Shown here piece after piece: positions 32,021 through 60,951 of a DNA stretch of 64,000 bases. The notes below the pieces were generated by a model that was not told where the DNA came from, searched no databases, and was given only the letters and a program-made list of their open reading frames with translations. The position numbers and the translations under genes are program-made. Source of the stretch: an uncultured bacterium (GTDB lineage: Bacteria; Arandabacterota; Arandabacteria; JAGLYR01); NCBI GenBank assembly GCA_964610505.1, contig CAZSXU010000007.1, forward strand, positions 3,594 through 67,593, in the 5' to 3' direction. Position 1 is the first letter of the stretch. Every line of letters starts with the position of its first letter.

Positions 32021-32368
32021 TTGTTCGACCACGAGAAGCTCGACGTCTATCGCGTCAGCATGGATTTCGTGAAGTGGGCCTATCGCTTGTGCAACAGGCT
32101 CAAAGGCGCTGATCGCAATGCCCGCGACCAGCTTTTGCGTGCCTCACAGTCGATCCCCCTGAACATTGCCGAAGGCAACGGAAAGCTTCCCTCACCGGAC
32201 CGGCAACGGTTTCTGCGAATCGCACTGGGTTCCGCGCTAGAATGTGCTGCGATCATTGACGTTCTTGCAGTTGGCGAGGCTATCGAAGACACGACAGCGG
32301 CGAGGGGCAGAGCGCTTCTTGTGCGGGTCGTTGCCATGCTGACGAAAATGACATCGCCCTCCAAGTGA
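32021..32368 (+). CDS. Four-helix-bundle protein (23S rRNA intervening-sequence protein family, TIGR02436-like)
   Basis: 115 aa with the pattern ...YR....F..W...L...L.....R.Q..RA..SI..NIAEG.G.....D...FL.IA.GS..E characteristic of the family. Confidence 0.8.
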   Translation: MFDHEKLDVYRVSMDFVKWAYRLCNRLKGADRNARDQLLRASQSIPLNIAEGNGKLPSPDRQRFLRIALGSALECAAIIDVLAVGEAIEDTTAARGRALLVRVVAMLTKMTSPSK

Positions 32369-32383
32369 GCGTCGGGAAGGAGC

Positions 32384-32455
32384 CGAGTTCGAGTACGAGT
32401 AGGAGTGAGAAGCGGGGAATTATACTCGTACTCAGCGATAGCGGTACTCGTACTC
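32384..32455. repeat. (GAGTAC)n hairpin element C, immediately 3' of the four-helix-bundle gene
   Basis: CGAGTTCGAGTACGAGTA, loop, CTCGTACTC AGCGATAGCG GTACTCGTACTCG GGGTTT. Confidence 0.85.
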
Positions 32456-32745
32456 GGGGTTTAGGATTGTGTTCTGTCCTGCCTTCGAGGAAGAAGGCGG
32501 TTTCACCGAGCGGCTGTACCGGGTACGGAGCCGGAGGCGCGGCGAATGAAGGATCCGGGCACAGCCCAGCGCGTTCACTCCACCTGTCTGGTTTGTCCCA
32601 CGCTCGCGGGGTTTCCCCGCGACGCGATCGAGAGCCACATTACCGTCCTCCGAATAACGGCGCGTACTGCCAAGGATTCGACCCATACAGACTGTCCGGT
32701 AAGGCCTGAAATCTCCATCTGAATCTGTGCACTTGACTTCGTGTA

Positions 32746-33050
32746 GTGAAACCCGCATTCTTCCGGCATCCCAGTGACCGTCGGTGTTGGTCGGTGGGCG
32801 TCCGGTCGTTTGTGGTCCTGGCGATCTTCGGGCTTTGCGCATCCGCCGCCTCGCAGACGTTGAGTCGGTTCACTGACTACCCTGGGAATGACGGGTACTA
32901 GACTAGTGTGGCCCACTCCCCCGGGTGGTACGAGCCGGATTTCGATGACTCAGGTTGGGACCGGGCCGTGGAATCGGGGGACAGGGATCCACAAGCCCGC
33001 TTTGCGATGACAGGAGAAGACTACCGAGTGTTGCCGAGCGCCTTGAAGGA
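32746..33050 (+). pseudogene. Possible gene remnant: 51-codon signal-peptide ORF, then a frameshifted fragment with a glycoside-hydrolase-like motif (WYEPDFDDSGW)
   Basis: GTG at 32746 gives ...RSFVVLAIFGLCASAASQTL...*. The next frame reads SPGWYEPDFDDSGWDRAVESG and is then truncated by the ICMT gene start. Confidence 0.25.
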
Positions 33051-33550
33051 TGAACATGTTTGTTCTTATTCGTGCGATCAGCTACGCTGCGATCTTCATC
33101 AGCCTTCTGCTCATCTATGTCCCGGCCCGTCTTCTGTCCTGGTCGGGCATCGTCCGCCCTGCGACGATTGAAGTGCCGCAGGTTGCCGGGATGGTGATCG
33201 CGGCTGCCGGTGCCGTGGGCACCCTCTGGTGCGTCATCGGTTTTGTATCCGCCGGAAGAGGCACACCGGCGCCTTTTGATCCCCCTCGCCGGCTCGTGAT
33301 TCGAGGTCCCTACCGCTTCTTGCGGAATCCGATGTACCTGGGTGCAGGAATTGCCCTCGCCGGTGCCGCGCTCTTCTACGAGTCGCTGCACCTCTTGGGC
33401 TATACCGGTCTCTTATTCCTCGCAACGCACCTCTTCGTGGTAGGCTACGAAGAGCCCACTCTTCGGCGGACTTTCGGCCAAGAGTACGAAGACTATTGCC
33501 ACCACGTCGGACGCTGGTGGCCGAGATTCCACCAGCAGGATCCGGGTTAG
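33050..33550 (+). CDS. Isoprenylcysteine carboxyl methyltransferase (ICMT/PEMT) family membrane methyltransferase
   Basis: RGPYRFLRNPMYLGA...EEP.L...FG.EY..Y motif. Confidence 0.8.
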   Translation: MNMFVLIRAISYAAIFISLLLIYVPARLLSWSGIVRPATIEVPQVAGMVIAAAGAVGTLWCVIGFVSAGRGTPAPFDPPRRLVIRGPYRFLRNPMYLGAGIALAGAALFYESLHLLGYTGLLFLATHLFVVGYEEPTLRRTFGQEYEDYCHHVGRWWPRFHQQDPG

Positions 33551-33860
33551 AAATATCAAAGCCCACGGAAGTTTCAGGGGCAGCCTACGAAATGGGAACC
33601 CTTGATCTCCAGCACTGTTCAGCGACGCAAGCAGAGTTTCGTAGTCCGTCCCCGAGACTCCGTCCCCGAAACTCCGTGGATCGGAATCTGTGGTTCTAGA
33701 AAGTGCCTTTGGAAAGCCAGTTTCTGCTCGGTATCGGCGTCGGCAGATTTTCACCCCTTTTGAGAGTTGAGTTTCCAGGTGTCTTGGCTGTAGAATGACT
33801 CAGGCTCGTGCATGCAGGTGCACAACCAGGTGGTTGCCCTGGGTCCAAGTGGGAGTCCCA

Positions 33861-35426
33861 ATGACGAAGACCACGAATCGTGCCGTTCCACTCGCGCTGC
33901 TAACGCTGGGTTTCGCAGGGATCGCAGTTTTCGTCATCGCTACGGCACGCGGAATCGGGATTACTACCGATTCCACAGCCTACATTTGGGCCGCGCGGAG
34001 TCTCTCGCAGAGTCAAGGCTTGTCGTGTGGGCTGTCCGCAAGCGGGGAGCTGCTGCCGATGATCCACTACCCGCCCTTGTTCCCGGCCATCCTCGGTATC
34101 CTCGCGTATACAGGCATTGACCCACTGCACGGGGCCAGATGGCTGAACGCGTTCCTCTTCGGGGCCAACATTCTCCTCGTCGGCCTCGTGGTATGGCACC
34201 ACACGCGATCGAGGTGGATCTCGATCCTGGGTTCGTTCATCATGCTGACGTCCACCTTGATGCTCGGCCTCCATACGGTGGCCAAGACCGAGCCGCTGTT
34301 CTTCTTCTTCATTCTCTTGGGATGGCTGTTGCTCGCCGCGCATGCCGCCAATCCGAACCGAACCTTGCTGCTCCTGACCTCAATCGTCGCCGGGCTAGCG
34401 TTTCTCGCCAGGTTCCCGGGTCTGGCGCTCGTAGCCACCGGTATCGTGAGCATGATGTTCTGGAACAAAAGGCCGGTCCGTCAAAGGGTCGCGGATTCGG
34501 CTGTGTTCGTTGCGATCAGCTGTCTGCCGATGGCGTTGTGGTTAGCCAGAAATCTCCAGGTTTCAGGACAGGCGACGACTGTACAACTGGCATTCCATCC
34601 CGTCACTCTTCACCACCTTGATTCCGGCCTGACCGACATTTCGGACTGGCTGCTACCTGCGAGCGTGCCGACGAAAATCAGAATGATAGTCTTTCTGGTC
34701 GCGATCGGCGCGCTGCTTGGGGCGGGCGCGGTGCTGTGGTTCAGGAAACGGAAGCTGCACGAGAGTCGCTCCCTCAGAGAGGACCTCGGCGACATCAGCT
34801 GCATACTGGCGGCATTTGGGCTGTTCTATGGGTTGTTCGTGACCGCCGCCATTTCCTTCGGCTACGCGGATATCCCACTGAACGACCGGAACCTCTCCCC
34901 ACTGTTCATCTCGGGACTTCTACTTGTGTTATGCCTCGGACACCGTCTCTTGTATTCCACTGAGGGTCTGCTTGTCCCGAAACTTGGTGCTGCGGCGATT
35001 GGGATTGCACTTGCGATATCCTATCTTGTCGGGGAAGCCACGTGGGTCGCCCACACTCGGAAGGAGGGGCAGGGATTTACAGGCAGGGCGTGGCAGCAGT
35101 CGGAGGTGGTGGAAGCAGTGAGGGAACTCCCGCCGGATACTCCGATCTTCACAAATGCGGTGGGCGCGATCTACATCCTGACGGGCAAAGCAGCCAGGGA
35201 AGTCCCAGCCGCAGTGGTGCTGGCTACCGGGAGGCCTAACCCCGCCTACCGGTCCGAGTTGGCCGACGTGGAAGTGGAACTCAGGAACAAGGGTGGGGCG
35301 TTGGTGTATTTCCGTGACGAGGACAATGTACCGTATCCGCCTTCAGAAAGGGAACTCAAGGGACGATTGCCGCTGGAACTCCTCTCGAGCAGTCGTGGCG
35401 GGTCCGTCTACACGGTAGCACGCTAG
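33861..35426 (+). CDS. Glycosyltransferase family 39-like (ArnT/PMT-like) polytopic membrane protein
   Basis: About 520 aa and more than 10 TM helices. Aromatic/DS-rich first loop (ITTDSTAYIWAARSL). ATG at 33861; the ORF opens at 33795. Confidence 0.65.
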   Translation: MTKTTNRAVPLALLTLGFAGIAVFVIATARGIGITTDSTAYIWAARSLSQSQGLSCGLSASGELLPMIHYPPLFPAILGILAYTGIDPLHGARWLNAFLFGANILLVGLVVWHHTRSRWISILGSFIMLTSTLMLGLHTVAKTEPLFFFFILLGWLLLAAHAANPNRTLLLLTSIVAGLAFLARFPGLALVATGIVSMMFWNKRPVRQRVADSAVFVAISCLPMALWLARNLQVSGQATTVQLAFHPVTLHHLDSGLTDISDWLLPASVPTKIRMIVFLVAIGALLGAGAVLWFRKRKLHESRSLREDLGDISCILAAFGLFYGLFVTAAISFGYADIPLNDRNLSPLFISGLLLVLCLGHRLLYSTEGLLVPKLGAAAIGIALAISYLVGEATWVAHTRKEGQGFTGRAWQQSEVVEAVRELPPDTPIFTNAVGAIYILTGKAAREVPAAVVLATGRPNPAYRSELADVEVELRNKGGALVYFRDEDNVPYPPSERELKGRLPLELLSSSRGGSVYTVAR

Positions 35427-35653
35427 GCGTCTGTCGGAGAATGGCCTCTTGCCGTTGAGGATCCGGGACAGGATCCGAGATGCTGCTTTCGGTACCGGGT
35501 TCTTGGGGGATGTAGTCGGCTTCTGAGCTGACGGAACAGGTTGATAAGGCTGACTACGTCCCCCAGAGCCGCCGACGCCCGCTCCGCCGGCACCGGCATC
35601 CCGGAGAAAATGATTGGCCTGTTCCTCGCAACGCAAACTTGAGCCCGCGATTC

Positions 35654-36205
35654 TCAGGCATCCTTCCTGAACACGAAGAGGTTGTTCAATCCGAGTTGGA
35701 ACTTCTTCTTCCGTACCAGAGACAGGCCATGGCCCTCAAGACACGCCGGGGTCTTGTGAACGTCGAAACAATGATGCTCGCCCAGAGCCATTCCGTCGAT
35801 CATACGCAACGTTTTGAGTGCAGACAGGATCACGTCCACCGCCGGCGATGGGACGGTCACCAGCAGGTAACCGCCGGGCTTGAGGTGCTCTGAGCAATTT
35901 CGAGACAAGTTGCGCAATTGCTCGTCAGGCATGTGTTCCAGCACGGCCAGCAGAGTGATTGCGTCGAACGGCTCAGGAGCGGGCAGGACATCGGGGAAAT
36001 ACCCTTTCAGCAAGACGGCGCATTCCACGTGTTTCCGGCTGCTCGCGAGGACTGGATCAATCCCAACGCTTGGGCCCAGGCCGGGAATCTGGCGGAAGAG
36101 TGCGCCGTCTCCGCAGCCAACGTCCAGCACCCGTGCTCCCTTAGCGATGTAGGGCCTCGCTTCGGCGATCCGCCACCACTGAAGAAAGCGATCGAGCATC
36201 TTCAT
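35654..36205 (-). CDS. Class I SAM-dependent methyltransferase
   Basis: Motif I VLDVGCGDG. Overlaps the upstream GT2 gene by 4 nt, so the two are co-transcribed. Confidence 0.8.
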   Translation of the reverse strand: MKMLDRFLQWWRIAEARPYIAKGARVLDVGCGDGALFRQIPGLGPSVGIDPVLASSRKHVECAVLLKGYFPDVLPAPEPFDAITLLAVLEHMPDEQLRNLSRNCSEHLKPGGYLLVTVPSPAVDVILSALKTLRMIDGMALGEHHCFDVHKTPACLEGHGLSLVRKKKFQLGLNNLFVFRKDA

Positions 36206-37377
36206 CGGCGGCCCATCCCCAACAGACTGAGGAAGAAGCTGGACATGATGACTTGGAAACCCAGCGCCAGGACCATCCCGGATGGTATCAGTAACCGCAC
36301 GAGTTGGGCCGGGGCTAGGGGGCCGAACGAATGCTGGCCCCAGATCACCACGGCACGGCCGATTCCCCCCAGACCGCCCGCCATCATGATGGCGCCAATT
36401 GCCAGGCCAACCTCAAGCGTCACCGCGCGGAACGCTCTGTCGAACCGCGGATCGGGGGGCAACAATCCCTCGGTGATGGCGAATACCTTGCTGAGCACGG
36501 CGAAATTGGCGGCCTGGAAGCCCGACAGAATAGCAATGGCCGCAGCGAAGAGTGTATTCGCGTCGAAGGTGACTCCGCCAATGGCAATCGGGCCGCGCAG
36601 CAACAAGATGCCGACGGTTGTGCCGAGGAGCATCAGCAACAGCCCCGGATACAGGAATAGCCAGCGCGGGCTGTAGAGCAGCATGAAGCGCAGATGACGC
36701 CAGCCGTCGTGCCAGGACCGCAGGTGGGGAGGACGGGAACGCCCGTCGGGATGAAGCACCGTCGAAACCTCTGCTATCTTCATGCCCAGCAGCGTCGCCT
36801 TGATGACCATCTCGGAGGCAAACTCCATCCCCGTAGTCTGGAGGGCCATGCGTGTGAACGCCTCTCTGGAAAAGCCGCGCAGACCGCAATGGAAATCCTT
36901 GCACGGGGCCCTGAAGAACAGACGCCCAATCCCAGTCAGCACAGGATTGCCAAGGTAGCGATGCTTCCAAGGCATGGCCCCGGGCTCGACACCTCCCTTG
37001 AAGCGGTTTCCCATGACCAGATCGTACCCGGCACGCAACCTCTCAAGAAAGGGCGTCAGAGCGGAGAAATCATAGCTGTCGTCGGAATCCCCCATGATGA
37101 TGTACTTGCCCTGTGCGGCGCTGGCCGCGTAGAAGAGCGCCGCGCCGTATCCGCGGATCGGCACTTCGACCAGCCGAGCATTCAACGCGCGGGCGATGTC
37201 TTGGGAACCATCCGTCGAGCCGTTGTCACCAACAATGATCTCCCCGCGCACCTCGTGGTCCCGGAGCCAGTTCTGAGCCTTGCGAATGCACGTCCCCAGC
37301 GTCTCTGCTTCATTCAGGCAGGGCATGATGATGCTCAGCTCGAGCTCCGCTGTCTCTTGGCTGTGCGGCATTGCCAA
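36202..37377 (-). CDS. Glycosyltransferase family 2 (polyprenyl-phosphate sugar synthase / GtrB-ArnC-like) with a C-terminal TM domain
   Basis: SIIMPCLNE...GDNGSTDGS...DSDDSYD motifs, plus four C-terminal TM helices. Confidence 0.85.
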   Translation of the reverse strand: MAMPHSQETAELELSIIMPCLNEAETLGTCIRKAQNWLRDHEVRGEIIVGDNGSTDGSQDIARALNARLVEVPIRGYGAALFYAASAAQGKYIIMGDSDDSYDFSALTPFLERLRAGYDLVMGNRFKGGVEPGAMPWKHRYLGNPVLTGIGRLFFRAPCKDFHCGLRGFSREAFTRMALQTTGMEFASEMVIKATLLGMKIAEVSTVLHPDGRSRPPHLRSWHDGWRHLRFMLLYSPRWLFLYPGLLLMLLGTTVGILLLRGPIAIGGVTFDANTLFAAAIAILSGFQAANFAVLSKVFAITEGLLPPDPRFDRAFRAVTLEVGLAIGAIMMAGGLGGIGRAVVIWGQHSFGPLAPAQLVRLLIPSGMVLALGFQVIMSSFFLSLLGMGRR

Positions 37378-38301
37378 TCCTCCTAGGACCCTTCGTGAGC
37401 CTATGTCGGGCTGCTTCCCACATCAAGCGGGCGGCGGCCCGCGACCAGCAGATATCCGCCCCGGTCCCGCGGCCGACGTGCGTGTCCTGGCAGGTTGAGT
37501 CTGGGTCCGCGCCTCGGCGTCGTCGTCCTTCGGGTTTCTCTTCTCCCAAGACTGGAAGGCTTCGTACACCCCTCTGCGGTGACTGCCAGGTACAGCGGCA
37601 TCGCCTGTATCCTGTCCCTCGAGTGACCCCTGGCCCCGACGATCCCTGCGAAATAGAGGGTGCCCAGGACCAAGAAGAGGGTGTACAGCCTCCTCTGTCT
37701 GGAGTATGAGACCACCACGTATCCTTACGGAAACACATTCTCATTCTATATGAATACGCGTGGGTCGTAAAGCAGATTCGCCCCAATGAGCTACCCTAGG
37801 GAACCGGTCCAGTGGCTCTTACCCCGAAATGGACCTCTGACTCGCTCCGCTGCGAAAATCGTAGGGCGCAGTGTGACCTATGTCTTGGGGATGAACGTAA
37901 GCGAAGGGTCTCAGTCTGAGTCGTGGCGTGCCGTCTTGGGAGGCGGCCGAAGATCCCGATGCGTGGCGGAGCGAAACATAAACTCGATCTCGCCGTTTGG
38001 ACAGCGCACAGCCGGGGAATCTCGGCCGGCACGCGTCATCCCTCGAGACACGGTGATCCCGGCCTTCCGGCATCGCACTCTGCGCTCGGGGCGAACCGTA
38101 TCGGAACCTCCGGCCGCTGATGCCCGGTCGCCGTCGTTCCCTATGACCCACGCAACCTATTTATCCTTCCTCGGTCTACATAAATGAAGCCATAGCCGGA
38201 AGACCCGGGGCGATTCGGTTCTGGTCTGAGTGATGGGTCGAACAGCCTCCCCTCCGAAAGTACAGAACCCCTGTGAGCCAATCAGCCGAAAAGGAGACAT
38301 C

Positions 38302-39756
38302 ATGAAACGCTTGACTCTCACGTGGGCTCTAACGGTCTGTCTCGCCGCTTGCCATGTAGCATTCGCGGCGGGTGCCGAGGACGGGAAACGGCCGGCTTCC
38401 AAGAAGTTCGGGGAGTCTGTCTATCTGCTGGAAACATGGATCGAGTCGGTGCTCGATTTCGATCGCCTGCCGGGAATGTCCATCGCCGTCATCCACGATC
38501 AGGAGATTGTCTACACGAGAGGGTTCGGTTACGCGGATGTTGAGAGGGGCGTGAATGCGACGCCGAATACGCGCTACAGCATCTGCTCGATCTCCAAGCT
38601 GTTTACCAGTATTGCCATCATGCGGCTTCGCGATGAGGGGAAGCTGAGTCTGGATGATCCAGTGTCCAAACATCTACCCTGGTTTGCGCTGGAAACCGAG
38701 GATCCCAAGGCGCAGCCGCCGACGCTGGAGGATTTACTGCGGCACTCAAGCGGGCTGCCCTGCGAACCGGATTTGGCGACCTGGCCCGAATCCGATCTGC
38801 GCCGTCCGTCGCGCGAAGAACTCATCGAAGGAGTTTCGAAGCTGAAGGCGAGTTATCCCACCAACACGCAGTTCAACTACTCAAACCTGGGATTCTCTCT
38901 CCTCGGCGAGGTGGTGTCGGTGGTTTCAGGCATGGCGTATGAGGAATACGTGCACGAGAGCATCCTCGAGCCTCTTGGAATGGAGGCGACGACTCCGTAT
39001 CCACCCCGGAGTGTGCCGGGGAGGGAAGTGGCCGTCGGCTATGGGCGCTGGCCGCGAACGGGATCGCGCGCGGTAATATCACTTCCCGATGCACGGGCGA
39101 TGACTCCCGCAGGAGGTTTCGCCTCGACGGTGACGGACCTGGCGAAGTTTGCGATGTGGCAGTTCCGCGTCCTCGACGGGAAAGACGACGACGTCCTGGG
39201 CCAGGAAACGCTGGAGGAGATGCAGACCGTCCAGTGGCAGGATCCCGAGTGGGGCTACGGATTCACAGTCTGGTCCATGGGGGGCATGCACTTCGTCGGA
39301 CATCAGGGCGGCTGCCCTGGGTACAAGTCGCAGATCATCCTCTGCCCGGAAGAGAAGATCGCTGTGGTGGCGATGATCAACGCGACGGACGCGCCGCAGT
39401 TCACGCTAGTGTTGGAGACCTACAATATCATGGCGCCGGCTCTTAGGGCCTCGAGTAGCAGCGAGGAGGCGGACGAGTCGCAGGACTGGGCGAAATACAC
39501 CGGGTACTACACGGCCGACATGTCCTGGTCCGAGGCCGAGGTGGTGGTGTGGGACGGCGCCCTGTCGGTGATGTGGGTGCCGACGGGCAATCCTCTGGGC
39601 TCTCTGGTGAGATTGAAGCGCATCGAGGGAGGCATCTTCCGCCAGGTCGGAGGCGATGGGGCGCTTGGCAAGCACTACGTGTTCGGGACCGATGCCGAGA
39701 GCAACACCGTCTGCATGAAGTTCAATAACAACCTGCTCAGGAAGACGGTTCCCTGA
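38302..39756 (+). CDS. Secreted serine hydrolase, class C beta-lactamase / PBP-related family, with a C-terminal extra domain
   Basis: Signal peptide and S-x-x-K motif (CSISKLF). AAGGAG RBS before the ATG at 38302. Confidence 0.85.
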   Translation: MKRLTLTWALTVCLAACHVAFAAGAEDGKRPASKKFGESVYLLETWIESVLDFDRLPGMSIAVIHDQEIVYTRGFGYADVERGVNATPNTRYSICSISKLFTSIAIMRLRDEGKLSLDDPVSKHLPWFALETEDPKAQPPTLEDLLRHSSGLPCEPDLATWPESDLRRPSREELIEGVSKLKASYPTNTQFNYSNLGFSLLGEVVSVVSGMAYEEYVHESILEPLGMEATTPYPPRSVPGREVAVGYGRWPRTGSRAVISLPDARAMTPAGGFASTVTDLAKFAMWQFRVLDGKDDDVLGQETLEEMQTVQWQDPEWGYGFTVWSMGGMHFVGHQGGCPGYKSQIILCPEEKIAVVAMINATDAPQFTLVLETYNIMAPALRASSSSEEADESQDWAKYTGYYTADMSWSEAEVVVWDGALSVMWVPTGNPLGSLVRLKRIEGGIFRQVGGDGALGKHYVFGTDAESNTVCMKFNNNLLRKTVP

Positions 39757-39855
39757 GGTTGCGCCGGCCGGGGGAGAGTCCGCCGTCGCAGTCAGCCATT
39801 GTCACCGAATCCTCGAACGTGTACTATGTCCCGGGAAGCCAGCGTCTAGCAAGCG

Positions 39856-39883
39856 GCTGCGGCGGACGGCGGTCCGCCGCAGC
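39856..39883 (+). terminator. Perfect 12-bp GC hairpin (GCTGCGGCGGAC ggcg GTCCGCCGCAGC) 3' of the hydrolase gene; no U-tract
   Basis: Inverted repeat read directly from the sequence. Confidence 0.35.
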
Positions 39884-39921
39884 TCAGCCGGAGGGTCTCC
39901 GAAAGTCAACGAGAGGACGAT

Positions 39922-40737
39922 ATGCCCGGACTCAAGATGAAAGGTCTCGACAAGTTCATGAGTGTACTGATTTGTATTGTCTTCATCTCCTGTATCGGCG
40001 GCTGCGCAAGAGAACAACAGGAGCGTCATTTCTACTTCGTCCAGATTACCGACACCCATTTTGAAACCGGTGATAACATAGACAGATCGAAGAAGGCAGT
40101 GGAACTCATCAACGACTTGCCAATGAACATCCAGTGTGTGGTGCATACAGGCGACATAACTACGAACAGATTTGACGACAAGCAACTCTTAGACGTGTCC
40201 CTACCGATACTGGGGAAGATTGCCGCTCCAATCCACTTTGTGGCCGGTAATCATGATATTTTCCCTGAGAGACTGGAGTCATCGTGCAAGGCGTATGAAG
40301 AGATTTTTGGAGGATTGATTTCTCAGGCGGAATATGAGGATGTTGTATTCATATTTGTCTTCACAGAGCCGCTGAGAAAATCATTCACGATAGATGGCTA
40401 CCAACCCCTGGAGCAGCTCGAGGAGTATCTCAAGAAGGCAGATGGAAAACCTGTGATCGTGTTTCATCACGCCCCTTCGGTCGATAATTTCTATAACAAT
40501 GAGTTTCATGGAGGATGGGAGAATGAGATAAGGGAGAAATGGGTGAATCTGATCAATGGTTACAACGTCAAGGCGGTCATCGCCGGGCATTATCACAGAG
40601 ACGAACATCACTGGTTGGGAGATGTCCCGCTATATGTGTCGGCGCCGATTTCTGGATACTGGGGAAGGCAAGCAACGTTCAGGATATACGAGTACCACAA
40701 CGGTAGAATTGGATATAGAACTCAGTACATAGAATAG
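39922..40737 (+). CDS. Metallophosphoesterase (calcineurin-like) lipoprotein, compositionally foreign
   Basis: Lipobox ISCIGGC and the motifs DTHF...GD...GNHD. Roughly 45% GC against about 65% background, with AGA/ATA codon usage. Confidence 0.8.
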   Translation: MPGLKMKGLDKFMSVLICIVFISCIGGCAREQQERHFYFVQITDTHFETGDNIDRSKKAVELINDLPMNIQCVVHTGDITTNRFDDKQLLDVSLPILGKIAAPIHFVAGNHDIFPERLESSCKAYEEIFGGLISQAEYEDVVFIFVFTEPLRKSFTIDGYQPLEQLEEYLKKADGKPVIVFHHAPSVDNFYNNEFHGGWENEIREKWVNLINGYNVKAVIAGHYHRDEHHWLGDVPLYVSAPISGYWGRQATFRIYEYHNGRIGYRTQYIE

Positions 40738-40992
40738 AGGCCAGACCGTCTTGGGGATCGACTGCGAAACTCGGAGTTTACCTCGGAGTAGCTACATCCA
40801 TCGGTGACGCCTATCTCTTTGTCTGCGGCCGAGACTCCGGCCTTCTCTGAAGCCATCCAGTGCGGAAGCTTCGACGGGAGATCCTGGGGCCAGCGTGAAG
40901 TCGCTTGTCCGGCCTGCCCGACCGCCGAGATCGAGAGCAGCTCGAGTTCCCCGCTCAAATGGCCGATGGAGAGGAAGAGGAGGTGATCGGCC

Positions 40993-41526
40993 ATGAAGCG
41001 CGTTGAGGCCGTCCGGCCCGAATCGGTGTGTACGTTGAACGGAGGGTGGGTTCGAATCCTCGCCCTCGGCGCCCTGCTGCTCGTTTCGGGCTGTGCACCC
41101 GTTATAGACAATCTCCCCAAGAACGCTCCCAGGGGATACATCGAATGTCGCTGGCAGGGAAATCCGGGTTTTCCGCTGATGCTTTCGCTGTTTCCGGAGG
41201 GGAGGGACGCCGATCCCCTGGCCGTCTACCGCAGCGACGACAGGAGGGGCCGGGTTCGGTTCGCCGCTCGTCCGGGTGCTCATGTCTTGATCGTCTCCTC
41301 CATTGGGGACGCCGAGTTCCTCTCTACGATCGCCAAAGGGAGCAGACCCTTTGGCCCGCTCCCGGCCAACGAGAGAGAAGCGCTCGCTCTTCAGGTCTGG
41401 ACCGGAATGAAGACGGCCGTCGGCATTGACTTCGAGCGACAGGACAGCTGGTCTAACTGGGCGGGTCGTCCCATCGCCGGTAGCTACCTGATGACGCTCG
41501 CGGCCGAAAGACCGGTACCCAGATAA
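40993..41526 (+). CDS. Hypothetical lipoprotein
   Basis: Lipobox LLVSGC. No recognisable domain. Confidence 0.5.
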   Translation: MKRVEAVRPESVCTLNGGWVRILALGALLLVSGCAPVIDNLPKNAPRGYIECRWQGNPGFPLMLSLFPEGRDADPLAVYRSDDRRGRVRFAARPGAHVLIVSSIGDAEFLSTIAKGSRPFGPLPANEREALALQVWTGMKTAVGIDFERQDSWSNWAGRPIAGSYLMTLAAERPVPR

Positions 41527-41667: not shown

Positions 41668-41696
41668 TTGACATGCACACGGCCCGGGACATATTG
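41668..41696 (+). promoter_or_regulatory. Candidate promoter for the BMC operon, with a downstream 8-bp inverted repeat (TGTGTGAA ... TTCACACA at 41717-41759)
   Basis: TTGACA, 16-17 nt spacer, CATATT. AT-rich patch in an otherwise GC-rich region. The inverted repeat may be an operator. Confidence 0.35.
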
Positions 41697-41774: not shown

Positions 41775-43178
41775 ATGACGGAGGCTCTCAACGTGCACCG
41801 TGTGGCCATCGGCGCCGATCATGGCGGTTTTCAACTCAAGGAGCAGCTGAAGGCGTATCTCAACTCCAAAGGGTATGGGCTTGAGGACTGCGGGACCTTC
41901 AGCGAGGAAGCGGTCGACTACCCGAAGATTGCCGCGGCCGTCGCCCGGCTGGTGGCCGAAGGGCGTTCGGAGCGCGGCATCATCATCGACGGCGCGGGGA
42001 TCGGTTCCTCCATGGTGGCCAACAAGGTGCCCGGCGTCCGGGCGGCCCTTTGCTATGATGTTTCCTCCGCGACGAACGCCCGAGAGCACAACGACGCCAA
42101 TGTTCTGACCCTGGGCGCACGAATGATCGGGATCGGCCTGGCCCAGCAGATCGTGGATGTTTTCCTGACGACCGACTGTGTGGAGGATCGCCACCGGCGC
42201 CGGGTAGCCATGATTGGGGAGGTCGAGAGCGGCCGTCCTCTGCCCGCCGCACCGGCAACTCCGACGGCGGAAGCGGGCGCCGGAGTTTCTGAGGGGGATC
42301 TGGATCGCATTGCCCGGGAAGTGGCCGCCATGCTCTCCACGGGGGCAGGCCTGTCTGCGGAATCAAAGGAGACCATTTGCGGGGAACTCGTCTGCGGTCT
42401 GTGCGCAGACTGCATCCAGAGGAATCCCGAAGCCGTTCGCGATCTGATCAACGATACGGGTGCCGACCGCATCAGCCTGGGTCCCGGCGGCGAGGGCGTT
42501 CCTAAGGATCTGGCCAAGTACATCGACCACACGCATCTCAAGCCGGATGCCACGGCTGAGCAAATCCGCAAGCTGTGTCGGGAGGCGGCCGAGTACGGAT
42601 TCGCCGCGGTTTGCGTCAATCCGAACTGGGTTCCCCTCTGCCGGGAGGAGCTGGCGGGAACCGGCGTGGCGGTTTGCACGGTGGTCGGGTTTCCGCTAGG
42701 CGCGCACCAACCGGAGGTCAAAGCCCTGGAAGCCCGGCGGGCGATTCGCGAGGGGGCCCGGGAAATCGATATGGTGATCAACATCGGGGCCCTGAAGGGT
42801 GGAGATCATGCCCTTGTCGAGAGGGACATTCGAACGGTGGCCGACGCGTGCCATGAAGGACGGGCGGTTCTCAAGGTAATTATCGAGACGGCCCTTCTCA
42901 CGGACGAGGAAAAGGTCCTGGCGTGCCGGCTGGCGAAAAAGGCCCGTGCCGACTACGTCAAGACCTCGACCGGATTCGCCGGCGCCGGCGCAACCGCACA
43001 CGACGTGTCGCTCATGAGCGGAGCCGTCAGGGGAACCAAGATGGGGGTGAAGGCCGCAGGAGGTATTGGTTCCGCGGCGGACGCCGAGAAGATGATCCAG
43101 GCGGGCGCGACGCGGATCGGCGCCAGCGCGGGAGTGAAGATCGTCAAGGAGTACAAGCAAGTCACGGTTTCCGAGTGA
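41775..43178 (+). CDS. Fusion protein: ribose-5-phosphate isomerase B (RpiB/LacAB) + linker + deoxyribose-phosphate aldolase (DeoC)
   Basis: N-terminal half [14 protein letters not shown]...[10 protein letters not shown] (RpiB). C-terminal half [13 protein letters not shown]...GFPLGA...KVIIET (DeoC with a Schiff-base Lys). The linker carries an amphipathic helix and a [12 protein letters not shown] motif. Confidence 0.85.
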
Positions 43179-43200
43179 ACGAACAGGTAGGGGAGAGCCC

Positions 43201-43821
43201 ATGGACCTGCGATCGTATGTGTTCCTCGACAGCATTCAACCCCAGTACGCCGCTTTCCTGGGAACGGTGGCGCAAGGATTCCTGCCCATCGCGAACATGG
43301 CGTCGCTCTACGTCGAGATCTCGCCGGGAATCGAGATCAATCGAATCACGGATATTGCGCTGAAATCCACGCGAGTGACGCCGGGGATGCAAGTGGTGGA
43401 GCGCCTCTACGGGTTGCTGGAAATTCACTCGGAATCGCAGGCGGACGTCCGGGAGGCCGGCCGGGCGATTCTTCAGGCGTTGAATCTCAAGGAAGAGGAT
43501 CGCTGGAAACCCAGGATTCTCTCCAGTCAAGTGGTCCGCCGGATGGATGATCATCAGACCCAGCTGATCAACCGGATGCGGCACGGGAATATGATCGTTC
43601 CCGGGGAGACGATGTACGTGATGGAAGTCGAGCCGGCCGCCTATGCCGCTCTGGCGGCGAATGAGGCGGAGAAGGCGGCCGAGATCAACATCCTTGAGGT
43701 TCGCGCGTTCGGCAGTTTCGGCCGCGTGTACCTCGGCGGTGAGGAGCGGGACATCGACGTCGGCTGGCGTGCGGCGGTCGGCGCAATCGAATCGGTAACC
43801 GGAAGGGTCGTGAAGAAGTAG
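43201..43821 (+). CDS. BMC shell protein, tandem-BMC-domain (BMC-T)
   Basis: Two BMC-like halves. The second is canonical ([39 protein letters not shown]). Confidence 0.7.
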
Positions 43822-43872
43822 AAGAGCAACGGGGCACGTTGAGAATCCACTATTCAAGGGAGGCAGTCGGCA

Positions 43873-44187
43873 ATGGCAGAAGCCCTTGGCATGATCGAGA
43901 CCCATAGCTATGCCGCCATGGTCGAAGCGGCGGACGCGATGGTGAAGGCGGCGAAGGTGGAGCTCGTTCATTATGAGAAGATCGGCGGGGGATACGTGAC
44001 GGCCATTATCCGAGGCGACGTGGCGGCCGTGAAGGCGGCCTGTGACGCCGGCCAGGCCAGTGCGTCCCGTGTCGGCGAGGTTGTCGCCGTTCATGTGATC
44101 GCGCGTCCGCATACGAACATCGATCTGGTGCTTCCGCTGGGCCGCCTCGACCAGGTTCGGGCGGAACTGAAGAAGACGACGAAGTAG
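43873..44187 (+). CDS. BMC shell hexamer protein (BMC-H, PduA/EutM-like)
   Basis: [29 protein letters not shown]...[19 protein letters not shown] is canonical BMC-H. Confidence 0.9.
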
Positions 44188-44281
44188 GCCGGTCGCGCCT
44201 GCTGGAGAAGACCGGCCGCGGGGGGAGAGGCGCGTTGAATTGCGCTGCGTCTCACCGACCCCGGAAGGTTGAGGAGTTGCC

Positions 44282-44569
44282 ATGGTTCTGGCCAAAGTGG
44301 TCGGCACGGTTGTCGCCTCGCGCAAAGAGAAGAGCACGGAAGGACTCCGCTTCATGGTCCTCGAGCAGATCGACCTCGACGGCAAGCCCTCGGGAGGGTT
44401 TGTCGTAGCGGCCGACGCCGTGGGGTCGGGTGTGGGTGAAATGGTGCTCTATGCCTCGGGAAGCTCGGCGCGGCAGACTGTAGCGACGGACAAACGTCCG
44501 TGCGACGCGGTGATCATGGCCATTGTCGACCAGTGGGAAGTCGGCGGCAAGACAAAGTACAAGAAGTAG
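44282..44569 (+). CDS. BMC vertex pentamer (BMC-P, EutN/CcmL/PduN family)
   Basis: [13 protein letters not shown]...[19 protein letters not shown] motif. Confidence 0.85.
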
Positions 44570-44738
44570 CCCGGACAATCCATGGAACCCTGCTGCGAGC
44601 AAGACAGGACGAGCCTGAACTGCGTTTCGGAAGCGATTTCGATCCTCGACGGAGCCGGGCTACGCAATCGGCGAAGTCCTATGTAGGCTTGGGGAGCTTC
44701 TGCCATAGGTAGTGTTGGGGTTTGGCGTTGGAGAATTC

Positions 44739-46184
44739 ATGTCTGTGACGTTGTCGGAAGGGCAGATTCGGGAGATCGCACGGCGGGTTGTGGAGTCGCT
44801 GGGAAGATCCGGTGCGCCGCCGACCGCCGCCGGGGCGGCCGCACCCGCGGGAGCCCTGGCCGAAGGCGTGTTTGCGGATGTCGATTCGGCCGCGCGCGCG
44901 GCCGCCGAAGCCCAGCGTTCGCTGGTGGCGATGACCATGTCCCAGCGGGACAAGATCGTTTCCCGAATTCGGCAGGTGATGCTGGATCATGCCGAGGCCC
45001 TGGCGGGTGAGGCTCTGGCGGAGACGGGGCTTGGTCGCCTGGACGACAAAACGGGAAAGAACCGGCTCGTTGCGGAGAAAACTCCGGGGACGGAAGCTCT
45101 TTATCCGACGGCCCGAAGCGGAGATCGAGGGCTGTCGTTGTTCGAACCGGCTCCCTACGGCGTCATCGGGGTCATCACGCCCGTAACCAATCCTACGTCG
45201 ACCATCATCTGCAACACGATCGGAATGGTGGCGGCGGGCAACGGCGTGGTCTTGAACGTCCATCCCTCGGCTAAGACGGTCTCGATCCGAACGGTGAACC
45301 TCATCAACCAGGCCATCCGGGAGGCCGGTGGGCCTTCCAACGTGGTTACCACTCTGGCCGAGCCGACGATCGAATCGGCCCAAGAGCTGATGAAGCATCC
45401 GGGCATCCGTCTCCTGGTCGTGACCGGCGGAGCCGCCGTCGTCAAGGTAGCGATGCAGAGCGGCAAGCGGGCGATCTGCGCGGGCCCCGGGAATCCTCCC
45501 GTGGTCGTGGATGAGACGGCGGATCCGGACCAGGCGGGCCGCGACATTGTCCGAGGCGCATCCTTCGACAACAACATCGTGTGTGTCTGCGAGAAAGAGA
45601 TTCTCGCCGTGGACTCCGTGGCCGACGCCCTCCTGAAATCCATAGGACGTCAGGGAGGGGTTGTCCTCACGGGGGTCCAGCTTCGCCAGATCGAGCGGGT
45701 GCTCTTCCCGCACGACAGGACGCCCGGAAGGCCGGCGGCGGTTGAGAAATCACTCATCGGCAGGGACGCGGGCGTCATCCTCTCCAAGATCGGAGTGAAC
45801 GCGGGGCCGCAAGTCCGGCTGGCCGTGGTGGAAACCGACGCCCAGCATCCTCTGGTGTGGACGGAACAGATGCTTCCCGTCATGCCTCTGGTGAGGGTGA
45901 GAAGCGCCGATGAGGGGATCGACCTGGCTCGGCGCGTCGAGCAGGGCATGAGGCACACGGCCGTGATGCACTCGAAGAATCTGGATCATCTGAGCCGGAT
46001 GGCCAAGGTGATGGACTGCAGCATCTTCGTGAAGAACGGCCCCGCAGTGGCGGGATTGGGTTTCGGGGGTGAGGGCTACTCATCCTTCTCCATCGCGTCG
46101 CCGACGGGAGAGGGGTTGACGGGCCCGAGGCAGTTCTCCAGGGAACGGCGGTGCGTTCTGGTCGATCACTTCAGGATCGTGTGA
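44739..46184 (+). CDS. Acylating aldehyde dehydrogenase (PduP/EutE-like) with an N-terminal encapsulation-peptide-like helix
   Basis: Aldehyde dehydrogenase family core. N-terminus MSVTLSEGQIREIARRVVESL followed by an Ala/Pro-rich linker. GGAG RBS before the ATG at 44739. Confidence 0.9.
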   Translation: MSVTLSEGQIREIARRVVESLGRSGAPPTAAGAAAPAGALAEGVFADVDSAARAAAEAQRSLVAMTMSQRDKIVSRIRQVMLDHAEALAGEALAETGLGRLDDKTGKNRLVAEKTPGTEALYPTARSGDRGLSLFEPAPYGVIGVITPVTNPTSTIICNTIGMVAAGNGVVLNVHPSAKTVSIRTVNLINQAIREAGGPSNVVTTLAEPTIESAQELMKHPGIRLLVVTGGAAVVKVAMQSGKRAICAGPGNPPVVVDETADPDQAGRDIVRGASFDNNIVCVCEKEILAVDSVADALLKSIGRQGGVVLTGVQLRQIERVLFPHDRTPGRPAAVEKSLIGRDAGVILSKIGVNAGPQVRLAVVETDAQHPLVWTEQMLPVMPLVRVRSADEGIDLARRVEQGMRHTAVMHSKNLDHLSRMAKVMDCSIFVKNGPAVAGLGFGGEGYSSFSIASPTGEGLTGPRQFSRERRCVLVDHFRIV

Positions 46185-46807
46185 TGGAACATCCAGCGCT
46201 TGCACTCGTGGAACTGAACAGTATCGCCGCCGGGGCCAGAACGGCGGACGCGATGGCCAAGAAGGCCCCCGTCGAGATCCTGCGTGTGGGGACAATTCAT
46301 CGCGGCAAGTACTTGATCCTGATCGAGGGTAGCGTAGGGGCGGTTGAGGAGTCCTTCGCCGAGGGTCTTCGGGTGGGGGGGGAATCCGTCGTCGATAAGG
46401 TCTTTCTGCCGGAGGTCGATCGGACGGTTCGGGACGCGCTTCTGGGGAATCGACAGACGGGCACGTACGATGCCTTGGGAGTGGTCGAGACCGCCAACGT
46501 GGCGGCCGTGATCGAAGCGGCCGATGGGGGGGTTAAGGGCGCCGACGTCAAGGTGATGGAAGTACGCCTGGGCGATGGGATGGGAGGCAAGGGTCTCGTT
46601 TTCTTCACGGGCAAGGTTCACGATGTAGAGGCCGCCGTGGACATCGCCGTCGAGCGAATCCGGGATCGGCAGACCTGGGTCCAGCAAACGGTCATCCCGA
46701 TTCTTCACGAAGACATGGCGCGGCAGGTGGCGGAATCGACTCGCTTCGGGCCGCGGCGGAGTTCGGGCGGCAGAGCAGCGAGACGGCGGGGCAGCGGAGC
46801 CGATTGA
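46184..46807 (+). CDS. BMC shell protein, tandem BMC domains (PduT-like BMC-T) with an Arg-rich C-terminal tail
   Basis: Two BMC domains (ALALVELNSIAAG..., ALGVVETANVAAVIEAAD...). The start overlaps the AldDH stop (TGATG). Confidence 0.8.
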   Translation: MEHPALALVELNSIAAGARTADAMAKKAPVEILRVGTIHRGKYLILIEGSVGAVEESFAEGLRVGGESVVDKVFLPEVDRTVRDALLGNRQTGTYDALGVVETANVAAVIEAADGGVKGADVKVMEVRLGDGMGGKGLVFFTGKVHDVEAAVDIAVERIRDRQTWVQQTVIPILHEDMARQVAESTRFGPRRSSGGRAARRRGSGAD

Positions 46808-46880
46808 GCGTGTGCACACTCTGCGGTCCCAGGATTGCCGCTCCGCGCTTCTGACGGATGGAACCGGAAGGTGGAATCGA

Positions 46881-47168
46881 ATGCGTCTGGGCCGGGTTAT
46901 TGGGACCGTCGTTCCCTGCGTTGTCTACGAAGGGCTAACGGGTGTTCCGATGCTCATCGTCACGCCGCTGGATAAACGGGGAAAGCCCAAGGGAACCCCC
47001 TTTGTGGCGGCGGATGCAACGCGCATGGCGGGCCCCGGTGAACTCATCTATTACGAAGCTTCTCGAGAAGCCGCCCTGGCGCTCGACCCGTGGTTCGTCC
47101 CTGTGGATCACGCGATCGTGGGCATCGTTGACGGTGTCGAGCGAGACGGCGTGGAGATCAAACCGTGA
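46881..47168 (+). CDS. BMC vertex pentamer (BMC-P), second copy
   Basis: MRLGRVIGTVV...LIVTPLD EutN/CcmL family. ATG at 46881. Confidence 0.8.
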   Translation: MRLGRVIGTVVPCVVYEGLTGVPMLIVTPLDKRGKPKGTPFVAADATRMAGPGELIYYEASREAALALDPWFVPVDHAIVGIVDGVERDGVEIKP

Positions 47169-47437
47169 TCCTCGGGATTGTCAAGGGGACCGTCTACTCG
47201 ACGATCAACCATCCCTTCTACGACAGCCGGCGACTGCTCCTGGTGGATCTCGTCAACCCGAACGGGAGCGAGACGGGAGGCTACCTCATCGCCATCGACT
47301 CGGTCGATGCAGGCGTAGGGGACCGCGTTCTCATGATCGACGAGGGGAATTCCGCTCGGCAGATCGTGGACGATCCGCAGGCTCCACTTCGGTCCATCAT
47401 CATCGGCATTGTGGACGACGTGCAGGTGTCGGCATGA
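47165..47437 (+). CDS. BMC vertex pentamer (BMC-P), third copy
   Basis: MILGIVKGTVYST...GGYLIAIDSVDAGVGDRVL. GTG start overlaps the previous stop. Confidence 0.8.
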   Translation: MILGIVKGTVYSTINHPFYDSRRLLLVDLVNPNGSETGGYLIAIDSVDAGVGDRVLMIDEGNSARQIVDDPQAPLRSIIIGIVDDVQVSA

Positions 47438-47598
47438 GCCTCGTTCGTTGGAACACCAGGGGCGCAGCCGCAGATTGCACAGACCTCACAGCCAAGGGGA
47501 TCTTTCCGGGATGCACTCCCGTGCGTCCCGGGAAGACCCGGTAGCCTTCGCACGTTCTGTGGAATCTGTGTCATCTGTGGTGGGGGGTTCGCCTTCTC

Positions 47599-48303
47599 AT
47601 GAATGCCGCTTGGCACCTCAGGAAAGAGATCGTCGAGTTCGGGCGCAGGGTCTATGAGAAGAATCTCGTGGCTGCGACGGACGGGAACATCAGTGTCCGC
47701 ATCCTGGGGGATCGGCTCCTCATTACGCCGTCGGGATTCTGTCTGGGGGAGCTCAAACCTGAAGACCTGGTCTATGCCGACTTTGAAGGGAGGACACTCT
47801 CCGGGCGAAACGCCCCCTCCAGCGAGCTCCCAATGCACATTGCGGCGTACGAGGAAAGACCCGACGTTCACGCCATCATCCACGCCCACCCACCGGTGAC
47901 CACGGCGTTCACCGTGGCCGGCTACAATCTGGCTCAATGCGTGATTCCGGAGGTTGTCCTGATCTTCGGATGTATCCCCACCACAGAGTATGCAACGCCG
48001 TCATCGGAAGAAGGCCCTCGAGTCATCCGGTCTCTCATCCGGAAGCACGACGCGCTGATTCTCGATCGGCATGGATCCCTTACGGCGGGTTGCAGCTTGC
48101 GGGAGGCGTATCACAAGCTGGAGAAGGTGGAACACTGTGCACAGGTGACCTTGGCCGCTCGCCAGCTGGGTAACGTCAAGACTCTGACGGCGGATCAGGT
48201 AGAGCGTCTCGAAGAGGTCCGGAAGAAGATGGGGCTCGGAAACGGGTCGTCCCTCTGCAATCTCTGCGGAACGTGCGGAAAGTCCGGCCCGGACGATTCC
48301 TGA
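47599..48303 (+). CDS. Class II aldolase/adducin family protein (fuculose-/rhamnulose-phosphate aldolase-like)
   Basis: ATDGNISVR...HAHPP Zn-binding motifs. Confidence 0.85.
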   Translation: MNAAWHLRKEIVEFGRRVYEKNLVAATDGNISVRILGDRLLITPSGFCLGELKPEDLVYADFEGRTLSGRNAPSSELPMHIAAYEERPDVHAIIHAHPPVTTAFTVAGYNLAQCVIPEVVLIFGCIPTTEYATPSSEEGPRVIRSLIRKHDALILDRHGSLTAGCSLREAYHKLEKVEHCAQVTLAARQLGNVKTLTADQVERLEEVRKKMGLGNGSSLCNLCGTCGKSGPDDS

Positions 48304-50683: not shown

Positions 50684-51124
50684 GAAGAATAGCGCATTGG
50701 ACAAGAATAGACAATAGACAATGAATGGAAATAGAGAGGTCGGCGGGTTGATATAGAGAAGCGGAGAAGCGGACCGCATTGGAGGAGAATAGACAATAGA
50801 CCGAAATGGTGAAGTCGTCAGGTTCTCCACGACGCCTTTTTCCAGGATCTATTGTCTATTTTCTATTGTCTGCTTCACCATTTCTCTGGGGAACCTAAAC
50901 AGAAAATGGGAGCCAAGTGGCTCCCGAGGTCCGAGGGAAGCGAGGAGAGATTTGAGGATTGGAGGAGAATAGACAATAGACCGAAATGGTGAAGTCGTCA
51001 GGTTCTCCACGACGCCTTTTTCCAGGATCTATTGTCTATTTTCTATTGTCTGCTTCACCATTTCTCTGGGGAACCTAAACAAGAACAGGGAGCCTCATTG
51101 GCTCCCTGTTCTTGTTTAGGTTCC
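50684..51124. repeat. Complex intergenic repeat: AATAGAC iterons, a 180-bp unit in two tandem copies (50781-50960 and 50961-51140, 122 nt identical), and a truncated plus an intact long palindrome
   Basis: GGAGGAGAATAGACAATAGACCGAAATGGTGAAG...TCTATTGTCTATTTTCTATTGTCTGCTTCACCATTTC...GGAACCTAAACA is repeated. A related copy lies at 60952-61167. Confidence 0.85.
51070..51124. terminator. Perfect 25-bp-arm palindrome (GGAACCTAAACAAGAACAGGGAGCC tcatt GGCTCCCTGTTCTTGTTTAGGTTCC): GC stem with flanking A- and T-tracts, like a bidirectional terminator
   Basis: Read directly. The sister palindrome at 61168-61221 has different inner-arm bases that are perfectly compensated. Confidence 0.5.
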
Positions 51125-51270
51125 CCGCATGTGCCGTGTCAGAATTCGTGTCAAGCCTGCGCGTCAAGGTTTTTGAAGTCGGCCCACGAATCAGATTCAC
51201 GAACACTGCAGGGAAGTCGGGGGCGAACCATATTCAATTGTGCTCTCTACCTATTGCAGGGCGCGTGCCA
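51125..51270. repeat. Conserved 145-nt module, copy A
   Basis: Near-identical to 61222-61365 over about 120 nt. Not coding: copies differ by frame-breaking indels. Confidence 0.85.
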
Positions 51271-60950: not shown

Positions 60951-60951
60951 G

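Follow-up and report, generated by a model that had tools for sequence, protein, structure and literature searches.

An AT-rich gene for a predicted exported metallophosphoesterase: a probable old single-gene acquisition with relatives in integron cassettes

Compositionally atypical genes that ameliorate in new hosts are genes of the type described by Lawrence and Ochman. Integron cassettes form a second point of reference: they recombine between the G and the TT of the site GTTRRRY, and integrase-mediated insertion at secondary sites is also documented (PMC8876359). A third is the fold class of the metallophosphoesterases Rv0805, GpdQ, CpdA and SpdA. All three bear on an open reading frame (ORF) at 39922-40737 (+ strand) of a 64-kb stretch of DNA from an uncultured bacterium, called the window here and meaning the whole stretch of 64,000 nucleotides. 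The ORF runs from ATG to TAG, is AT-rich by GC and codon tests, and encodes a metallophosphoesterase of 271 residues, as judged from the Pfam family PF00149, an AlphaFold model and dN/dS (the ratio of nonsynonymous to synonymous divergence). Its neighbours are a gene of the beta-lactamase family upstream and a gene for a 177-residue putative lipoprotein (lip177) downstream. We regard it as likely that the gene is a foreign single-gene insertion which predates a species split and codes for an exported phosphoesterase, with an integron cassette as its most likely vehicle.

The gene differs from its surroundings in base composition. Its GC content is 46.4%, against 61.5% for the window; in sliding windows of 816 nt, the length of the gene, GC averages 0.615 (standard deviation, sd, 0.027) and reaches its minimum of 0.468 at start 39901, 5.4 sd under the mean, and none of the 70 ORFs of at least 80 residues that has a coding-like GC pattern approaches so low a value. 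The drop ends at the ends of the ORF, with 66.7% GC in the 5' spacer (39757-39921) and 61.6% in the 3' spacer (40738-40992). GC at the first, second and third codon positions is 0.51/0.32/0.56, where the rest of the window typically has about 0.65/0.45/0.75. The strong compositional anomaly described in the initial annotation is thus confirmed, as are its coincidence with the ORF and the return of the flanks to high GC: the gene is the lowest-GC stretch of its length in the window, with a third-position value (GC3) of 0.56 versus 0.75. Of the contrast given there, 45% GC in a 65% GC genome, the low figure for the gene stands and the host figure is a little too high. The only other patches of low GC in the window, at about 50.3-50.9 kb and 60.7-61.0 kb, consist of non-coding repeats.

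The same holds, with one qualification, for the AT-rich codons that had been singled out. Relative to 43 genes of the window, taken as the reference for host codon usage, ATA accounts for 32% of the isoleucine codons (5% in the reference) and AGA for 67% of the arginine codons (6%), so that the two are used at 6-10 times the host level; TTT is raised as well (41% vs 20%), AAA only weakly (29% vs 22%). Recoded with host codon usage, the protein would be specified by DNA of 53.7% GC, against 46.5% observed (z -7.9; sd among host genes 1.4), and the residues F, Y, M, I, N and K make up 32% of the protein but 18% of host proteins. About half of the 15-point deficit is due to amino-acid composition and about half to synonymous codon choice, chiefly ATA and AGA. 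The mean log-likelihood of codon choice lies only 2.2 sd from that of the host genes; the signal is therefore specifically one of GC content and rare codons.

The relatives of the gene are found mostly in low-GC hosts. A search for homologues returned 402 proteins, the closest with 76-78% amino-acid identity and encoded on contigs of 39-42% GC; at the nucleotide level, the closest relatives are 80-81% identical over 39908-40741. Named sources of homologues include Bacteroidota, Zixibacteria, Desulfobacterales, Marinimicrobia and Planctomycetes. Across the 49 loci with enough flanking DNA, the GC content of the gene tracks that of the host (r 0.885, slope 0.75), and this trend predicts 55% for a settled copy; the window copy has the largest deficit of the 49 (-0.151), 2.7 sd under the trend. 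In a neighbour-joining tree it pairs with the copy of a sister species, on contig L115 (100% bootstrap), inside a clade of 12 members (94% bootstrap) whose other copies reside in hosts of 33-47% GC, bar one, in L053. This last copy (L053 10001-10924) has 51.7% GC in a host of 62% GC and lies among GNAT and methyltransferase genes on the same strand; no attC-like element was seen beside it, and it may have been captured independently in a lineage of high GC.

The gene is missing from two relatives in which its flanks are conserved. A 9762-nt contig that carries P0135, with an RpiB-DeoC protein 80% identical to that of the window, reads ChlI, IVP, the beta-lactamase-family gene (Blac, 484 residues), 170 nt of spacer, lip180 and RpiB/DeoC; lip180 (P0254) is the orthologue of lip177 (53% identity, E 3e-46). 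L122, with core proteins 77-88% identical, reads ChlI, lip170 and RpiB/DeoC and is devoid of the beta-lactamase-family gene, the glycosylation block and the phosphoesterase gene. These empty sites, the nesting of the gene in a low-GC clade at 94% bootstrap, its codon usage and the direction of its substitutions, described below, are the grounds on which single-gene horizontal acquisition, as originally proposed, is upheld: a foreign origin from a lineage of much lower GC, by insertion of one gene, is strongly supported by these sequence comparisons. That the gene is native, its low GC being due to protein constraint or expression-linked codon use, is a very improbable alternative. It would account for the half of the deficit that lies in amino-acid composition and for the modest departure in codon log-likelihood (2.2 sd), and the family slope of 0.75 means that settled copies in high-GC hosts also fall below host GC. 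It does not account for the two relatives whose flanks are conserved around an absent gene, for the grouping of the window copy with those of unrelated low-GC phyla at 66-78% identity, or for a GC content 2.7 sd under even the family trend, with ATA and AGA at 6-10 times the host level.

The foreign gene is not a newcomer. The sister-species contig L115 (2058 nt) is 86.5% identical in nucleotide sequence to window positions 38981-41022 and has the same order of beta-lactamase-family, phosphoesterase and lipoprotein genes, the phosphoesterase gene having 47.7% GC in flanks of about 62%. Between window and L115, synonymous divergence (dS) is 0.285 for the phosphoesterase gene (dN/dS 0.13) and 0.41 for the adjacent beta-lactamase-family gene (dN/dS 0.34); the shared site and the proximity of these two values indicate that the gene was present before the two species split, and it has been under purifying selection since. 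Substitutions polarised by parsimony, with six AT-rich relatives as outgroups, run from AT to GC far more often than from GC to AT, at 58:8 for the stem, 12:3 for the lineage of the window and 25:7 for L115, counts that this choice of outgroups inflates on the AT-to-GC side. GC3, reconstructed as 0.53 at the split, is 0.56-0.58 now; the nearest relatives have 0.34-0.47 and the host has 0.75. An exponential approach to equilibrium would date the acquisition to some 1 to 2.6 branch-lengths earlier than the split, a rough estimate because of the inflated counts and because the true donor is unsampled. The half of the anomaly that lies in the amino acids is kept by the family in every host, and is therefore no sign of recency.

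These results speak against the recent acquisition that the initial annotation had read from the anomaly. A strain-level arrival still carrying the composition of its donor would explain why the compositional contrast is so large and so tight to the ORF, and a polymorphic phage-like element about 950 bp downstream speaks for an area that is currently active. Such an arrival would not be expected at the same site in L115 with a dS of 0.29, comparable to the neighbour's 0.41, nor with a GC3 of 0.56, well above the 0.34-0.47 of the closest relatives, and substitutions biased from AT to GC; moreover, all six contigs of the same population, which are 99.98-100% identical, have the gene in identical form (6/6), and its nearest known relative is only 77-78% identical. 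The proposal is largely refuted, and we give it almost no weight. The phage-like element itself starts at a polymorphic junction at 41678-41682 in some members of the population: L002 and L003 are 99.99% identical to the window up to 41682 and then diverge, and the contigs L005 and L006 end at 41678. From position 11761 on, L002 and L003 encode RecT (phrog_148, 6e-72), exonucleases, SSB, a DnaD-like loader and a small terminase, so that the element looks like a polymorphic prophage inserted between lip177 and RpiB-DeoC. No tRNA was found in the window.

The acquired gene belongs to a stretch that differs among relatives in gene content, in keeping with its earlier description as accessory-like: the P0135 contig and L122 are without the gene, and L115 has it at the same site. 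The interval between chlI and the lipoprotein gene differs between L122, the P0135 contig and the window, which indicates that it grew by successive insertions, with the phosphoesterase gene among the later ones. The zone of growth spans 32021-39756: ChlI adjoins the lipoprotein gene in L122, the two are separated by IVP and the beta-lactamase-family gene in the P0135 contig, and the window has, on top of these, a block of PEMT, PMT-like, methyltransferase and GT2 genes (33050-37377), all of normal GC. Two further loci with lip177 orthologues, L120 and L121, have upstream flanks of 161 and 385 nt, too short and too diverged to place the junction; in L121, the 3' end of a phosphoesterase gene was not seen within the 385 nt upstream of the lip177 orthologue.

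The relatives of the gene point to how it may have travelled. Copies from different contexts share about 30 nt upstream (cGTTAGCCAAGAATAAgGAGAGGAAAATATG) and, after the stop codon, an imperfect inverted repeat of about 75 nt. Searches with nhmmer find this 3' element beside the gene in L049, L050, L054, L055, L051, L052 and L059 (E 1e-14 to 1e-19); L051 is from Bacteroidota and L052 from Zixibacteria, and both have the same leader and 3' element. In the metagenome contig L059 (5419 nt), a copy of 66% identity stands in an array of four consecutive cassette units: first the phosphoesterase gene (203-1018; start TTAGCC, own 3' box GGCTAA), then a gene for a 229-residue membrane protein (TTAGGG, CCCTAA), an ORF of 75 residues (TTATGC, GCATAA) and a GNAT acetyltransferase gene (TTAAAT, ATTTAA). 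Each of the 4 units starts, directly after the G of GTT, with six bases that are reverse-complementary to its own R'' box, and at the end of the GNAT unit stands a canonical ATTTAAC...hairpin...GTTAATC. By its sequence organisation, the L059 phosphoesterase gene reads as a textbook integron cassette in an attC array; intI was not found in the L059 and L051 DNA examined. The array also harbours a group II intron on the minus strand (2270-4141), with a reverse transcriptase/maturase ORF (2346-3419) and Rfam matches to D1-D4 (3715-4034). Judging by these matches, the ORF and the reading of the flanks, the intron appears to sit inside the third attC, that of the 75-residue ORF cassette, in the orientation opposite to the cassettes; this placement matches the published behaviour of group IIC-attC introns (PMC3001079). 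The sample identifier of L059, Ga01804xx, is of the same series as that of a contig from the window population, L006 (Ga0180432).

Outside the array, lone cassettes show a graded decay of the 3' element: L051 keeps R boxes that pair, L049 has lost R', and L117 has lost the left arm. In the minimum-energy fold of the L051 element, AGCTAA pairs with TTAGCT and encloses an inner helix, which is the architecture of an attC. Arrays were also considered for L051, L052 and L053, where small genes on the same strand are suggestive, but were rejected, the spacers of L051 being without further attC-like units. On the cassette-bearing loci, Rfam gave no match to an attC-type family at the gathering threshold; a strict attC scan, for an AAC...GTT pair plus a hairpin, missed real elements and returned noise from coding regions, and it showed the palindromic repeats of the window.

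At the window site, homology to the relatives is limited to the ORF and 14 nt of leader, as expected for a cassette. The leader, with a ribosome-binding site (GAGAGGAcgATATG), occupies 39908-39921 (+ strand), where nucleotide homology to the copies of other genomes starts: L049, L117, L051 and L052 align with the window by blastn from 39908-39912 on, and the segment GAGAGGAAAATATG is conserved in the alignment with cassette-borne copies. Further upstream, G|TCTCCG in the window stands at the place of G|TTAGCC in relatives; 20 of the 30 leader positions are identical, and homology is clear only from 39908. After the stop codon, the block 40738-40830 is no better folded than shuffled sequences (z 0.05) and is not recognisable as an attC. 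Integron-borne entry is nevertheless the best-supported mechanism for the window copy, with about an even chance of being the right one. By this route, an AT-rich gene from a low-GC lineage would have entered between the beta-lactamase-family gene and the ancestral lipoprotein gene, in the insertion zone between chlI and the microcompartment operon, most likely as a gene cassette with a short leader and a 3' element of attC type; the attC would then have decayed past recognition. Purifying selection has acted on the gene since, and its composition drifts towards that of the host with about half of the deficit, that due to amino acids, locked in.

Horizontal transfer by other means, whether through transformed DNA that recombined illegitimately or with the help of homology, or as cargo of a phage or transposon of which the rest was deleted, is doubtful. 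It agrees with the lack of a detectable attC, integrase or core-site remnant in the window, with the integration of a phage nearby, and with the gain by this locus of other blocks that are not cassette-like (the beta-lactamase-family gene and PEMT-PMT-MT-GT2). It fits less well with homology that is confined to the ORF and 14 nt of leader, and with relatives that are cassettes or lone cassettes whose attC is progressively more decayed from L059 through L051 and L049 to L117. A phage vehicle is unsupported, no relative having been found on viral contigs scanned with the family alignment, and neither transposase genes nor transposon-like or inverted-repeat ends flank the gene, the direct and inverted repeats around it being short and at chance level. 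Cassette-borne entry can be extended, tentatively and with somewhat less than an even chance of being correct in all its parts, to the family as a whole: the tightly conserved subfamily of secreted phosphoesterases might be an integron cassette circulating widely in sediments, captured and fixed repeatedly in unrelated phyla, among them at least two independent captures in hosts of high GC (that of L053 and the lineage of the window), with the window copy inserted by an integrase at a secondary site other than attI, its attC then lost, and an extracellular trait, the scavenging of phosphodiesters or the degradation of organophosphate diesters, kept by selection.

The protein shows the marks of a working enzyme. 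PF00149 matches residues 39-226 (1.8e-14, 55 bits against a cut-off of 21.5). The residues D44, H46, D78, N110, H182, H183, H223 and H225 do not vary among 35 homologues, and H111 is nearly invariant, two members having GNND; D44, H46, D78, N110, H182/H183, H223 and H225 are the proposed metal ligands. The AlphaFold model computed from the family alignment (pLDDT 87, pTM 0.83) finds its best matches among solved structures in Rv0805 (E 9e-15, TM 0.64-0.75), GpdQ (E 6e-14) and SMPDL3A, with Foldseek E-values from 9e-15 to 4e-12 at 15-18% identity; sequence searches agree weakly with these fold matches (phmmer against PDB, E about 0.01). The protein thus resembles the Rv0805/GpdQ/CpdA fold class and is a member of no named family. 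Its subfamily, 98 clusters at 50% identity (E <=1e-30) among 1.84 billion representatives, none with a characterised member, is by this measure small, separate and sharply delimited; it is uncharacterised but unremarkable.

A signal peptide with lipobox-like cysteines is encoded at 39922-40005 (+ strand). It has an n-region with K5, K7 and K11, a hydrophobic core and, by a PROSITE-style pattern, the motifs VFISC (C24) and IGGC (C28); the model has a helix at residues 7-28. An N-terminal hydrophobic leader is present in 102 of the 102 full-length family members examined, a lipobox in 31, and most of the others end the leader in sites resembling those of signal peptidase I, such as NSYA|EE. The designation as a lipoprotein, given initially, is therefore plausible for the window copy, which is probably lipid-anchored, but cannot be extended to the family, where only about 30% have the pattern. 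Conserved gene neighbours were not seen in four other family contexts. A role in defence was considered and rejected, since PADLOC gave only a generic match of 20 bits (PDC-S10) and the protein is exported. The fold, the conserved ligand motifs, the export signal and the purifying selection together point, most likely, to a functional binuclear metallophosphoesterase that cleaves phosphodiesters outside the cytoplasm, for instance to scavenge phosphorus; the diesterase preference, the substrate and the physiological role are suggested by these features, as is the lipid anchor. The enzyme would act in the periplasm or on the surface of the cell, held there by a lipid anchor in this host, and free usable phosphate esters from extracellular diesters.

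Several observations weigh against the combined account of a foreign gene, older than the split, that encodes an exported phosphoesterase and arrived as a cassette. As regards origin, at least one host gene scores lower in codon log-likelihood than the phosphoesterase gene, absence from the relatives, compared without a species tree, could be loss and not gain, and the empty site of P0135 was compared by gene order and not at the level of junction DNA. As regards age, the nearest relative is 77-78% identical in protein and the actual donor is unsampled; if its GC content was already about 46%, the gene has ameliorated less than estimated above. As regards the vehicle, nhmmer with the cassette 3' element found no attC remnant in the window (best E = 39, and that elsewhere in the window), Pfam found no integrase, transposase or other recombinase among about 40 window ORFs, single-strand folding of the 3' elements beside phosphoesterase genes is weak (z 0 to -0.6), and a true cassette array is documented in L059 only. 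As regards function, the curated equivalog models score far under their cut-offs (SpdA 40.9 bits against 400, CpdA 24.7 against 225).

The surroundings of the gene are those of an ordinary chromosome, with genes for EF-G, RuvB, QueA, Tgt, Ffh, RimM, TrmD, RNase HII and ABC transporters. The host appears to be Eisenbacteria-like, with 61.5% GC, an attribution that rests on the named matches of RpiB-DeoC (82% identical to Candidatus Eisenbacteria MCK4548071.1, its closest named relative) and of the beta-lactamase-family gene, for which the best of 42 genome-contig loci, in a Candidatus Eisenbacteria metagenome-assembled genome, is 70% identical and none is syntenic with the window. The two adjacent genes are as first described. 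The upstream one, for a serine hydrolase of the beta-lactamase/penicillin-binding-protein family (38302-39756, + strand, 60% GC; PF00144, 6e-75), is by its distribution, present in the P0135 relative and missing from L122, an earlier addition to the locus; the downstream one, lip177 (40993-41526, + strand, lipobox LVSGC), is its ancestral gene, with orthologues that adjoin RpiB-DeoC both in L122, at 56% identity, and in the P0135 contig, at 53%. Between the upstream neighbour and the phosphoesterase gene lies a perfect 12-bp inverted repeat (GCTGCGGCGGAC ggcg GTCCGCCGCAGC; 39856-39883), which is kept with changes in L115; it is probably host DNA and may be the terminator of the upstream gene, although there is no T-run 3' of the repeat and a terminator scan gave no call. 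A promoter-like TTGTCA-17-TACTAT lies at 39799-39827 (in L115, TTGTCA is conserved and the second hexamer is TACCAT), and the phosphoesterase gene might, speculatively, be expressed from it or by read-through from the upstream gene. The block directly after the stop codon (40738-40795), with the palindrome AAACTCgGAGTTT and the direct repeat CTCGGAGT, is identical in 56 of 58 positions between window and L115, compared with 83-92% nucleotide identity in the less conserved flanking genes, and may serve to regulate the lipoprotein gene downstream.

Further features of the window lie outside this locus. The interval of about 920 nt from the GT2 gene to the beta-lactamase-family gene (37378-38301) holds no ORF with a coding-like GC pattern, and GC dips locally to 55% at 37600-37999. 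The microcompartment operon (41775-48303) is complete; it begins with an RpiB-DeoC fusion and includes BMC-T, BMC-H, three EutN/CcmL proteins, an aldehyde dehydrogenase and a class II aldolase; it is of the Planctomycetes/Verrucomicrobia type in an Eisenbacteria-like genome, with 76-88% amino-acid identity in L119 and L122. A non-coding repeat occurs as two tandem copies of about 180 nt (50820-50999 and from 51000) and as a third copy near 61 kb, the spans being 50820-51200 and 60950-61300; these repeated elements near 51 and 61 kb underlie the other low-GC patches of the window. Each holds a near-perfect palindrome of 58-59 nt (GGGGAACCTAAACA...GGGAGCC..GGCTCCC...TGTTTAGGTTCCCC), at 51068-51126 and 61166-61223, with a half copy at 50888, followed by an identical tail of 75 nt; they could be a family of MITE/REP-like (miniature inverted-repeat transposable element or repetitive extragenic palindrome) or terminator-like sequences.

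The locus shows how far a GC anomaly taken alone can overstate recency: the gene is, on the comparisons above, foreign and yet arrived before two species separated, and half of its anomaly will not fade, since the cause lies in the composition of the protein. It also places side by side the stages in the life of a cassette outside clinical settings, from an active array (L059) through lone, decaying cassettes (L051, L049, L117) to what would be a domesticated chromosomal gene (the window). The compact family of exported phosphoesterases that moves between phyla is a reasonable biochemical target, with phosphorus scavenging and diester degradation as the activities to look for.

Compared with the known systems, the protein shares with the Rv0805/GpdQ/CpdA/SpdA group the calcineurin-like alpha/beta sandwich, the motifs DxH, GD, GNHD, HH and GHxH, the size (about 245 residues when mature) and the best structural matches (Foldseek E 9e-15 to 5e-13). 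It differs in its low identity (15-18%), in NCBIfam scores of 25-41 bits against cut-offs of 225-400, in the signal peptide or lipobox of its family, and in a conserved C-terminal segment (YWGRQATFRIYEY.NGKIGYRTQYIE) that was not seen aligned to Rv0805 or GpdQ. Its relatives resemble integron cassettes in the G|TTRRRY start, the short leader, the single ORF and the 3' imperfect inverted repeat, in which the R'' box pairs with the first bases of the cassette itself (PMC8876359), and in the array with GNAT and small-ORF cassettes and a group II intron that targets attC (PMC3001079). The window copy, unlike these, has no detectable attC, neighbouring cassettes or integrase; it stands between ordinary chromosomal genes and has been inherited vertically since before the species split. 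With the ameliorating genes of Lawrence and Ochman it has in common the low GC at all codon positions, the directional substitution from AT to GC and a GC3 between donor-like and host values; unlike theirs, about half of its anomaly is fixed by conserved amino-acid composition. The event is in sum of a known kind and leaves current understanding unchanged: an ordinary old transfer of a single gene, which can be traced unusually well.

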